This document shows, one piece after another, positions 55,801-58,800 of a stretch of DNA of 64,000 nt. Numbering within the stretch: the stretch's first letter is position 1; every line of letters starts with the position of its first letter. The stretch lies in NCBI RefSeq assembly GCF_055900595.2, contig NZ_CM148325.1, one strand, 5' to 3'. Position numbers: made by a program.

Positions 55801-58800
55801 TTACAGTCTCGTTTGTCTCGCCGCCAATCCAGAAGACAACAGGCTCATAGAAACGCTTACCTTTCCACTCACCGCCATATTTACCATCAGCAGGATAGCC
55901 TTTTGTGCCCGGATAACGCCCGGTAAGGTGAAACGCGACTTCAGCAGCACCAGTAAATGACTTACCAAGCTGGTTACCAGCCATAAAACATCGCTCTGGA
56001 TAGTCATGCCCGGCGTCGATGAACTCACGCTGTTTGCTGTATGGCGTAAATTCATATAGCAGGTGTGTGTTACGGTAGTTCTCTTCTTCTTCGAGTAGCT
56101 CGAGCAATTCGATTTGCTCTTCGTCGCTCAGGTTATCAAGAATCGCGTCCAGTTCCACGGTTGAATAGCTCCTTGATACGAGAGCGTCGCTTATCGCGAT
56201 CTCCCTTATCAGGTGTCACGTCTTCAACTTGCGACTGCTCTTTGAGGCCCAAATCACGGGCGATGATGTTAGCGTTGAGAAGGTCAGCAGCAGCGCCAGA
56301 GAATTTCTGGTCGTAGATGACCTGTTCTGCTCGCGTAACGACTTCAGATAAATCTTCTCGCAGGCGATATGTGCGCCATGTTTCAAGCGTCACATCAATG
56401 AACAGAGTGAGTCCGGTAATGGTCATCGCTCGCATCTTGGCGATAGGCTCTTGTATCACTTCACCCTGATACGAGAACGCCTTCATCTCCCATAGCGGGT
56501 TAGCTTCCACCCACTCGAAGTATTCACAACAAGCAGCCCACAGCGCCTCAGGCGATTCGAATTTAGGGTTTCGCCCATGACTACTGCGGGCCTCCCAAAA
56601 TCGGTTGCCCTTTGGTGCTGCCATATTCATCTCACTTAGTTGTTATTTCAGGCTGATGACTCTTTCGCGCTTTCAATCAGTGACTGCTTCAGCAAGTAAC
56701 CTTCGAGCATCCAGATTTTGTTTACAGCATTCTGCCGGGCAATCTTCCGACCAATTTCTGCATCAAAGTTTTCCGGGCTTGCACAGGCACTCTCTCCGGT
56801 GACGGTGAAGCCATTCTTCAGCACCAGTACGCAGAAAGTGAGCAACTTCAATGGTGATAAATCACGATCGCCTTCTTCTGGTTTTTCCCTGCCACAATAT
56901 TCGTTGCTGGAAATGGCACCATTACGTCCATCATAAGCAGTAAAGTAATGCTCGCTTTTAATCACGTCTTCGATGTGCTGAGGAGTGATTCGCGGGGCTG
57001 TTTTGCCTTTCTCAACGATTTCTTTTTCGATTTGCTGGTCGCTCATAATTATGACCCTGTAGAGTGGTTGCTTGATTAGGATGTCTTTCCATCAGTCCGC
57101 CACCACAAAGAATCTTTTTTGCCATAAGGCAGGAGGTTCATCTTTCAGTGGCTGCCGGTGTTATTTCCCCACTTACTGGCTTGGGTTGCTTCGTGGTACT
57201 GCCGTAACTGGTTGCCAAGAATAAATTCCGGTTTCATTATCAAGCCCACCCGTAGATGGGCTTTGTAATGGATAGCCGTTGCTCAGTTCTCGTAATGCTT
57301 TGATTTTTCCGATAACGCAGTTTTGCGTTTGCCATCAGCACGCGATATCGAGAGTCAACTGCAGTTGCTCGCGCCAGTACTCAACATTTGCTTCAATAAC
57401 CGGCTTATCCCATCGCCAGCGAGCCATCTCTCTTGCCCCATTGCTGGCTTTTGATTTCCGGTCATCGCGAATGCGACATGCTTGCTCATATTTCTGCTGC
57501 TCAGTCAGTTCACCGCGAAGCAGACTATCAATGTGCAGGTCGCACCACACAGCAAAACGAGCATCACACCAACGGGCAAATGCAACTGAAAGTTTTGGAT
57601 GTAGCCACGTACCACCACCCCTGTCCTTTCGTGCCTTGCTGGTTTTTACATACCTCGATTGTGAGGGATGTAAAATTTGAGATTCTTTCCCGGTCAACGC
57701 TTCGTCTAAAGCACGAACGTATTCAAGCGTTTCTGCCAAACGCATCCAGTTATCAATGCGTTTCCCAAATCTCTCAGCAACACCTGTGACGTTGATCCAA
57801 CCATCAGTGTTGAAACTGACAATTTCACCTTTGTAATTAAGTGGCACGATATTCATAACGTTTACCTACCATTTGAAATGAACCTTTGCCGCATAGGAAA
57901 CCAGCCCACCGAGGCTCGCCAGCACTAACTGGTATCCTCAAAGGCCCATTCCAAAGGGGCAGGTTCGGTGTAAAAAACATGCGTTGCGGTACGCATTTAT
58001 TGCAAAAAGCCCCGCATCGCGAGGCTCATTAAATTGACTTTGTGATTTGCAAAAAAATTATTTCAGGCATTGCGTCCTGATGTATTCCTGCAGGTAGTTA
58101 ACCTGCGCGGTTATCTTGTCGATTCCACTTCGGAGACGGTAATAATTGAGTTCAGCATCTGCTGTAAGTCTTGGGCTTTCTCCATCGCCCATGCCGCTGG
58201 CTCCGGTCTTTGACTTTGCACAGGAGGCGGCGACTTGCAGCCGCTTACGCCCAGCAGAAACATCATCACGGAGACTTTCGATAGTCGCGTTAGCATCAGC
58301 AAGCTCCTTTGTATATCTGGCATCGAGTTCTGCTACATCACGTTGACGCTTCTGCATATCAGCGATGATGGATGTGGCTTTATCGCGCTGGTCTTTGTAG
58401 GCGATGGCGTTATCACGGTAATGATTAACAGCCCATGACAGGCAGACGATGATGCAGATAACCAGAGCGGAGATAATCGCGGTGACTCTGCTCATACCTC
58501 AATCTCTCTGACCGTTCCGCCCTCTTCTTTGAATTTTGCAATCAGGCTGTCAGCCTTATGCTCGAACTGACCATAACCAGCCCCCGGCAGTGAAGCCCAG
58601 ATATTGCTGCAACGGTCGATAGCCTGACGGATATCACCGCGATCAATCATCGGTAAAGCGCCACGCTCTTTAATCTGCTGCAATGCCACAGCGTCCTGGC
58701 TTTTGGGAGAGAAGTCTTTCAGGCCAAGCTGCTTACGATAGGCATCCCACCAACGGGAAAGAAGCTGGTAACGTCCGGCTGCTGTTGATTTGAGTTTGGG

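Follow-up and report, generated by a model that had tools for sequence, protein, structure and literature searches.

A 64,000-nucleotide (nt) stretch of contig NZ_CM148325.1 (NCBI RefSeq assembly GCF_055900595.2), hereafter the window, carries a P22-like Escherichia coli prophage, and we analyzed the junction between the lysis and packaging modules of this prophage. Two open reading frames (ORFs) lie there, one encoding a 173-amino-acid (aa) KilA-N protein and the other a 132-aa protein of the Acb4 family, whose characterized members are phage sponges for nucleotide signals. An earlier reading of the same DNA, made before any database search (the sequence-only reading), had placed both ORFs between the Rz spanin gene and the small terminase gene, at 56648-57856, and this placement held. 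Both ORFs are on the minus strand, as are all genes of the junction region, and because both have strong family matches they are real genes and not chance ORFs. The roughly 290 base pairs (bp) of non-coding DNA reported earlier also exist (288 bp), but they sit between the two ORFs rather than after both. Strains A3, A26 and EC332 of E. coli carry identical DNA, in which RefSeq annotates the same two coding sequences as "KilA-N domain-containing protein" and "Gp49 family protein". The features of the junction are as follows.

58495 to 58058, minus strand: Rz spanin gene, the upstream boundary of the junction (Pfam Phage_lysis, E=1.6e-35)
58003 to 58027, minus strand: intrinsic-terminator hairpin 1, 3' of Rz, AGCCTCGC-GAT-GCGGGGCT followed by TTTTT
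57970 to 57996, minus strand: terminator-like hairpin 2, ATGCGTACCGCAACGCAT followed by GTTTTTT (consensus scan)
57335 to 57856, minus strand: gene for the KilA-N protein, 173 aa (Pfam, PHROG, AlphaFold2)
57334 to 57047: non-coding gap of 288 bp between the KilA-N gene and acb4
57232 to 57270, minus strand: conserved non-coding block 1, a hairpin with conserved flanks
57080 to 57210, minus strand: conserved non-coding block 2, about 130 nt, with 108 distinct copies that hardly vary
56648 to 57046, minus strand: Acb4-family gene (PF13876, "Gp49/Sf6 gene 66"), 132 aa (Pfam, PDB search, AlphaFold2, Foldseek)
56684 to 56695, minus strand: 12-nt microhomology TTGCTGAAGCAG, the crossover in the 3' end of acb4 (DNA alignment)
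17 bp: spacer from acb4 to gp3
56136 to 56630, minus strand: small terminase gene gp3, P22 type, the downstream boundary (Pfam GP3_package, E=3.6e-33; PHROG 606)

The 132-aa protein matches Pfam PF13876 (Phage_gp49_66, "N4 Gp49/Sf6 gene 66") over residues 20-122, with E=8.1e-35 and 119.6 bits against a cut-off of 27; its PHROG match, phrog_322, has no functional annotation. When the PDB was searched by sequence with phmmer, the sole match at E<0.01 was Acb4 of Bacillus phage SPO1 (9E4W, E=0.0066). An AlphaFold2 model of the monomer, built from a 27-sequence alignment, reached a mean pLDDT (predicted local distance difference test) score of 90.4 and showed strands at residues 29-36, 69-76 and 81-87 and a long C-terminal helix at 96-131. 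With this model, Foldseek retrieved only 9E4W chains from the PDB at E<=0.002 (E=5e-4, probability 1.00), with template-modelling (TM) scores of 0.61-0.70 as normalized to the target, and the next match was at E=0.18. The predicted fold has three antiparallel strands, N-terminal helices and a long C-terminal helical extension as in 9E4W. Membership of the Acb4 family is established by sequence and fold, and the term "hypothetical" used in the sequence-only reading no longer applies, given that the family is a characterized one of sponges acting against the cyclic-oligonucleotide-based antiphage signaling system (CBASS).

The Acb4 family was defined in 2024 and equated with PF13876, comprising 1,331 homologues (Chang et al., doi 10.1101/2024.12.30.630793). 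SPO1 Acb4, a protein of 96 aa, forms a tetramer sequestering four 3'3'-cyclic GMP-AMP (3'3'-cGAMP) molecules, and cGAMP binding was seen with eight of eight homologues that were purified; homologues from Gram-negative phages bind 3'3'-cyclic di-AMP (3'3'-cAA) as well, though not cyclic di-GMP (cGG), and clades differ in specificity (doi 10.1101/2024.12.30.630793). Table S3 of the same study lists Sf6 gene 66 (Q716B1) as a family member, together with an E. coli APEC O1 protein that is identical to residues 3-121 of the window protein (doi 10.1101/2024.12.30.630793). N4 Acb4 shows sponge activity in vivo and triggers the Panoptes system (PMC12657230); its identity to the window protein is 42%. 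Both Tad2 and Acb4 soak up nucleotide signals, and the two are often fused (doi 10.1101/2025.07.12.664507), and among the homologues found here, relatives of Acb4 are fused to Tad2 or Sequestin domains.

Like other members of its family, the window protein is small and encoded among phage accessory genes. It keeps aromatic and hydrophobic pocket residues of SPO1 Acb4 (9E4W), here numbered F80, F94 and I98, along with the invariant G99, but it differs from that protein in having 132 rather than 96 aa, with an extra N-terminal helix. We compared ten ligand contacts of SPO1 Acb4 (K36, F48, E49, V56, Y57, F62, N63, I66, T70 and K81), seven of which are changed in the window protein, including E49 to T81 and Y57 to A89. 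The change of N63 to D95 concerns a backbone contact, and the remaining differing residues follow what is typical of Gram-negative homologues, N4 Acb4 for example. Close relatives share the core motif GFTVTGESACASPENFD..IGRKIA without variation, and N4 Acb4 has one close to it.

By homology, the window protein would form a homotetramer in which CBASS cyclic dinucleotides are held in pockets between subunits. Its putative ligands are 3'3'-cGAMP and probably 3'3'-cAA, as in other homologues from Gram-negative phages, and by withdrawing them the protein would prevent the CBASS effector of the host from being triggered in lytic growth. Alternatively, the protein could have the Acb4 fold with a different or lost activity, being directed at another nucleotide signal (2'3'-cAA, cyclic UMP-AMP (cUA), or a signal of Thoeris or of type III CRISPR (clustered regularly interspaced short palindromic repeats) systems) or being disabled by its tail. 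The seven altered contacts point in this direction, as do the variation of specificity among clades, the recombinant 3' end of acb4, and the behavior of the Acb4 domain of an Acb4-Sequestin fusion, which binds cGAMP weakly and also binds 2'3'-cAA. We nevertheless consider this alternative unlikely: all eight homologues assayed bound cGAMP, the core motif is invariant in close relatives, and the chimeric tail begins past the end of the Pfam domain at residue 122, in an allele that recurs in other contigs. An anti-CBASS sponge is the function that we predict for this protein.

The recombinant end of acb4 can be followed at the nucleotide level. The Sf6 gene 66 product has 126 aa, against 132 in the window. 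In the DNA alignment, the window follows gene 66 up to TTGCTGAAGCAG (56695..56684, the LLKQ codons), where the megablast match to Sf6 stops; past this point, it follows a gene like Sf6 gene 68 and P22 orf59c, with the final 11 codons of that gene and then its downstream spacer. Through a deletion across the 12-bp microhomology, the DUF2560 gene (Sf6 gene 67) was lost together with most of gene 68, which explains why acb4 abuts gp3. The same 132-aa allele was present in 5 of the 126 junction segments of the census described below, the window's own included.

Turning to the upstream gene, residues 7-114 of the 173-aa protein form a KilA-N domain, as the sequence-only reading had proposed and as the Pfam check confirmed (PF04383, E=8.2e-22, 77.5 bits against a cut-off of 23.8). 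The full protein matches PHROG 129 ("transcriptional regulator") at E=3e-57. Its C-terminal domain, residues 116-169, consists of two helices and resembles the C-termini of ORF11CD3 and Rha proteins: the Rha-like PHROG 518 matches residues 118-170 (E=4e-9), and precomputed Pfam annotation lists PF10549 (ORF11CD3) for homologues of the protein. The two-domain design recurs in about 700 homologues of the D3 Orf11 type, carried by prophages of enterobacteria and Pseudomonas, and the motif RGGGTW.HP (R79-G-G-G-T-W84, H86-P87) is invariant in 27 homologues. The AlphaFold2 model (pLDDT 89) shows an alpha/beta N-terminal domain followed by a two-helix C-terminal hairpin. The top two Foldseek matches of this model in the PDB are the APSES domains of Mbp1 (1mb1) and of PCG2 bound to DNA (4ux5), both weak (E about 0.3, TM 0.36). 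KilA-N and APSES domains are known to be related, and the weak fold matches fit this relationship. No match to the KilA-N protein was found in a PDB sequence search.

Comparison with the genes at the same position, downstream of Rz, in P22 and HK97 places this protein among related accessory genes. The P22 gene is rha, whose product combines Phage_pRha with ORF11CD3 (E=1e-27), and the HK97 gene encodes gp73, which combines KilA-N with P63C and has an N-terminal domain 47% identical to that of the window protein. All three pair an N-terminal DNA-binding module with a swappable C-terminal module. The window protein differs from P22 Rha in its N-terminal domain, which is KilA-N and not Phage_pRha, and is like it in its C-terminal helices, which match PHROG 518 and, weakly, the ORF11CD3 domain carried by Rha; from HK97 gp73 it differs in having an ORF11CD3-like C-terminal domain instead of P63C. 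Its best full-length relatives are proteins of the Pseudomonas D3 Orf11 type, at 50-60% identity. Because of these architectures at one and the same position, the window gene is a domain-swapped positional equivalent of P22 rha.

Domain shuffling of this kind is described for viral DNA-binding proteins as the "Bro network" (PMC10111431). We place the 173-aa protein in this Bro/KilA-N/Rha/Ant network, as a putatively APSES-like KilA-N domain fused to a helical, probably dimerizing, ORF11CD3-like domain. Binding of DNA by the window protein is predicted from these relationships, and it is most likely a non-essential DNA-binding regulator made late in infection. We hold with moderate confidence that its role is that of an accessory regulator at this stage.

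Public data often show the KilA-N gene in split or frameshifted form, as in proteins P0134, P0140 and P0171 and at about 13 census loci, and variants with 166-aa products end in an alternative frame (window 57355-57489, minus strand). Separate PHROGs exist for the N- and C-terminal halves (phrog_13826 and phrog_23489). The frequency of broken alleles suggests either that inactivation of the gene is common or that errors are frequent in the sequences.

A role in immunity was also weighed, in which the KilA-N protein would be a BstA-like exclusion or abortive-infection factor, or a counter-defence protein, and not a regulator. Searches of both junction proteins with PADLOC and NCBIfam returned nothing informative beyond one weak match of the KilA-N protein to the candidate system PDC-S22 (E=1.2e-5), and a Tad2-like anti-Thoeris gene fills the same slot in phage Huey and 7 sampled loci, both of which would fit such a role. 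However, the PADLOC match is confined to the shared KilA-N region, the protein has no BstA C-terminal domain, and the placement of its gene past the late-operon terminators speaks against expression in a lysogen. An immunity factor is therefore quite improbable here, and an accessory DNA-binding regulator remains our preferred assignment.

The terminators bear on the expression of both genes. Upstream of the junction, the lysis region has the following layout.

60867 to 60244, minus strand: Q, 207 aa
59275 to 58952, minus strand: holin gene
58968 to 58492, minus strand: endolysin gene
58323 to 58111, minus strand: Rz1, embedded in Rz

Past gp3, the minus-strand order continues with the large terminase gene and then the portal gene. 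Directly after Rz, inside what is expected to be a single late operon, stand the two tandem intrinsic-terminator hairpins, and a rho-independent terminator is annotated in Emek and HK544 at the position homologous to hairpin 1. The phage L genome paper describes terminators of this kind within an operon as having an unknown role. A crude consensus scan of 56400-58300 found no sigma-70-like promoter on the coding strand. Since the terminators follow Rz and no such promoter was detected, acb4 and the KilA-N gene are probably expressed by Q-antiterminated late transcription, as far as these crude consensus scans can tell.

The view drawn from the sequence-only reading is instead that of two foreign genes, recently acquired as a moron, with a possibly toxic KilA-N protein and an uncharacterized hypothetical one. 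This account can draw on the variability of the junction, where the 126 loci show at least 8 alternative occupants, on the confirmed KilA-N domain, and on the rarity of the full 1.4-kilobase (kb) combination, which was covered at >=80% of the query in 8 of 5426 complete E. coli genomes. An autonomous promoter-gene-terminator unit was not what the crude consensus scan revealed: no promoter-like site was found on the coding strand, the two terminator hairpins are upstream and not downstream, and only 17 bp separate acb4 from gp3. The label "non-lambda, non-P22" did not survive comparison with known phages either. For the segment 58057..57075, with the KilA-N gene and most of the gap, identity is 98.7% to HK544 (where the gene is gp62) and 97.6% to the P22-like phage Emek (orf173); for the acb4 segment, at about 57274..56684, it is 97% to Sf6 (gene 66) and 96% to Huey. 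Sequenced P22-like and HK97-like phages have, in the same position, genes with 97-99% identity to each of the two, and the 132-aa protein belongs to a characterized family. Recent moron acquisition is thus very unlikely, and the account as a whole is largely refuted.

Judged by these alignments, neither gene is foreign to the P22-like/HK97-like phage group; both are common accessory genes that are already catalogued. Across the complete E. coli genomes, acb4-like DNA was present in 544 of 5426 and the KilA-N gene in 154. A prophage of strain A3 matches the window at 100% over the 1.4 kb, but it has a 172-aa Q (519-bp gene), carries tRNA-Asn/Thr and adjoins thrS. The window has a 207-aa Q and no tRNA genes in the interval from Q to holin (59200-60300), and bioF, bioB, bioA and ybhB are present at 34667-38769. 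The position of these genes at 34-38 kb of the window shows that its prophage lies near the bio operon, i.e. the lambda attachment (att) region; because the bio genes, the length of Q and the tRNA genes differ, the window is a different mosaic and a different lysogen from A3.

Between the two genes, about 170 bp of the gap, in two blocks, are kept whatever the flanking genes, as seen when the window is aligned with Sf6, Huey and Emek. With megablast and blastn, this element was found at 88-98% identity in 165-201 lambdoid phage records, whose carriers include HK97, HK022, P22 (right after the rha stop codon), ST64T/L, CUS-3, epsilon34 and ES18. Block 2 is almost invariant in its 108 distinct copies; a blastn search in "distant" mode yielded no divergent copies, all being at least 88% identical. 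The blocks also occur apart, with block 1 alone in Stx2 phages, block 2 alone in P22, and the first half of block 2 without the second half in ES18-type phages, so that the gap looks like a patchwork of recombination linkers.

Block 1 contains a hairpin, AAGCCCAUC-UACG-GGUGGGCUU (57263..57242), with a 9-bp stem, conserved flanks and no U-tract. In its common variants the stem is preserved by G-U pairs, which are possible only on minus-sense RNA, and in one variant the top of the stem and the loop differ and still pair. These variants give modest evidence that block 1 forms an RNA-level hairpin on the coding strand. The minimum free energy (MFE) z-score of the whole gap is only -1.97, and an Rfam scan of 56400-60400 at E<=1 gave no match in the gap. 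The annotation of phage L places an opposite-strand terminator inside block 2. By default, we regard the gap as a passive linker for homologous recombination, with a cis-regulatory leader as the alternative.

A small conserved protein encoded by the gap was considered and rejected; across block 2 no ORF is conserved. ORFs from ATGAACCTCC and ATGGCAAAAAA range from 5 to 118 aa and are disrupted by an A-run indel in 6 copies and by an early stop in Huey. A plus-strand ORF of 50 aa (57072..57224) that overlaps block 2 is broken by the same A-run indels.

To survey what else occupies this junction, we compiled a census of 126 segments with the conserved gap sequence, drawn from the matches listed by one exact 20-mer scan and from earlier loci, which makes it a biased sample; neighboring ORFs were clustered and occupants assigned by Pfam. 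Upstream of the element, the 126 listed segments hold KilA-N/ORF11CD3 genes (89), a T5orf172/MUG113-domain protein (26) and a Tad2-like gene (PF11195; 7). Downstream, the same listed segments hold DUF2560 (85), Acb4 (26), an orf59c-like gene (24) and an HNH endonuclease (11), and also Dec or orf129. KilA-N and Acb4 are paired in 11 of the listed loci, and Tad2-like and Acb4 in 4. Earlier suspicions of a variable acquisition site are borne out by this census; the intuition was right, yet the cargo consists of recognizable counter-defence genes. Profile searches, which the sequence-only reading had itself proposed as a check, upheld the KilA-N domain, yet both genes turned out to be standard alternative cassettes of the phage group.

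The T5orf172/MUG113-domain protein (GIY-YIG-like, 161 aa) lies between the KilA-N gene and the conserved element in its 26 listed loci, as an alternative or additional occupant upstream of the element. In Huey, a P22-like sister phage, the slot of the KilA-N gene is taken by the Tad2-like gene (PF11195), and the conserved spacer and acb4 come directly downstream. The Huey record (L002, 1995-2495 and 2730-3110) labels both proteins "anti-CRISPR protein", apparently in error, as they look like an anti-Thoeris and an anti-CBASS sponge.

Because a Tad2-like anti-Thoeris gene stands in the KilA-N slot of sister phages, we interpret the junction as a counter-defence hotspot. An anti-signaling hotspot with Tad2, Tad3, Acb4 and Sequestin is described in N4-like phages (bioRxiv 10.64898/2026.06.04.730250), and it resembles the window junction in being a fixed slot between modules in which sponge genes alternate beside unknown small genes. 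The window slot differs in belonging to a temperate lambdoid late operon, between lysis and terminase genes, in being split by conserved non-coding sequence, and in the non-immune cargo (Dec, HNH endonuclease, DUF2560) that slots of its type also hold.

Taken together, we assign a probability of roughly 75% to the reading that the junction is a variable slot with cassettes for an Acb4-family sponge and a KilA-N regulator. The slot, flanked by lysis cassette and packaging genes in this P22-like E. coli prophage's late operon, would consist of two independently exchangeable cassettes with a conserved non-coding linker joining them. Several observations weigh against this reading. For the sponge, only 3 of the 10 SPO1 ligand contacts are identical in the alignment (F48/F80, F62/F94 and I66/I98), which leaves ligand specificity unreadable from sequence; the protein also has an insertion of about 30 residues between strands 1 and 2 and ends in a chimeric 11-residue tail. 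A position behind two terminators implies late expression, perhaps a late time for a counter-defence protein to be made. For the regulator, residues 122-169 match ORF11CD3 (PF10549) weakly (E=0.013, 16.2 bits against a cut-off of 25), and BLASTP against P22 Rha was not significant; the frequency of frameshifted and split alleles suggests that the gene is dispensable.

A more far-reaching proposal joins these elements. The junction of P22-like and HK97-like phages might be an unrecognized counter-defence island, holding Acb4, Tad2-like and uncharacterized KilA-N/Rha, T5orf172 and DUF2560 genes; the conserved blocks might act as cis-acting RNA, a hairpin and a leader controlling the expression or processing of downstream cargo, and the KilA-N/ORF11CD3 protein might serve in host takeover or immunity. 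We put this forward as a speculation that is, as a whole, doubtful.

The feature itself is ordinary and already known, and current understanding is not overturned. What novelty remains lies in the conserved non-coding element and in the possibility that lambdoid phages have a counter-defence island here. In practical terms, the annotation of the RefSeq "Gp49 family protein" can be updated to a predicted anti-CBASS sponge. This predicted sponge is present in prophages of about 10% of complete E. coli genomes, which bears on predicting the outcomes of phage-host encounters and on choosing or engineering therapeutic phages. The occurrence of Tad2-like and Acb4 genes at this junction, alternating or together, marks it as a place to seek more counter-defence genes in temperate enterobacterial phages.

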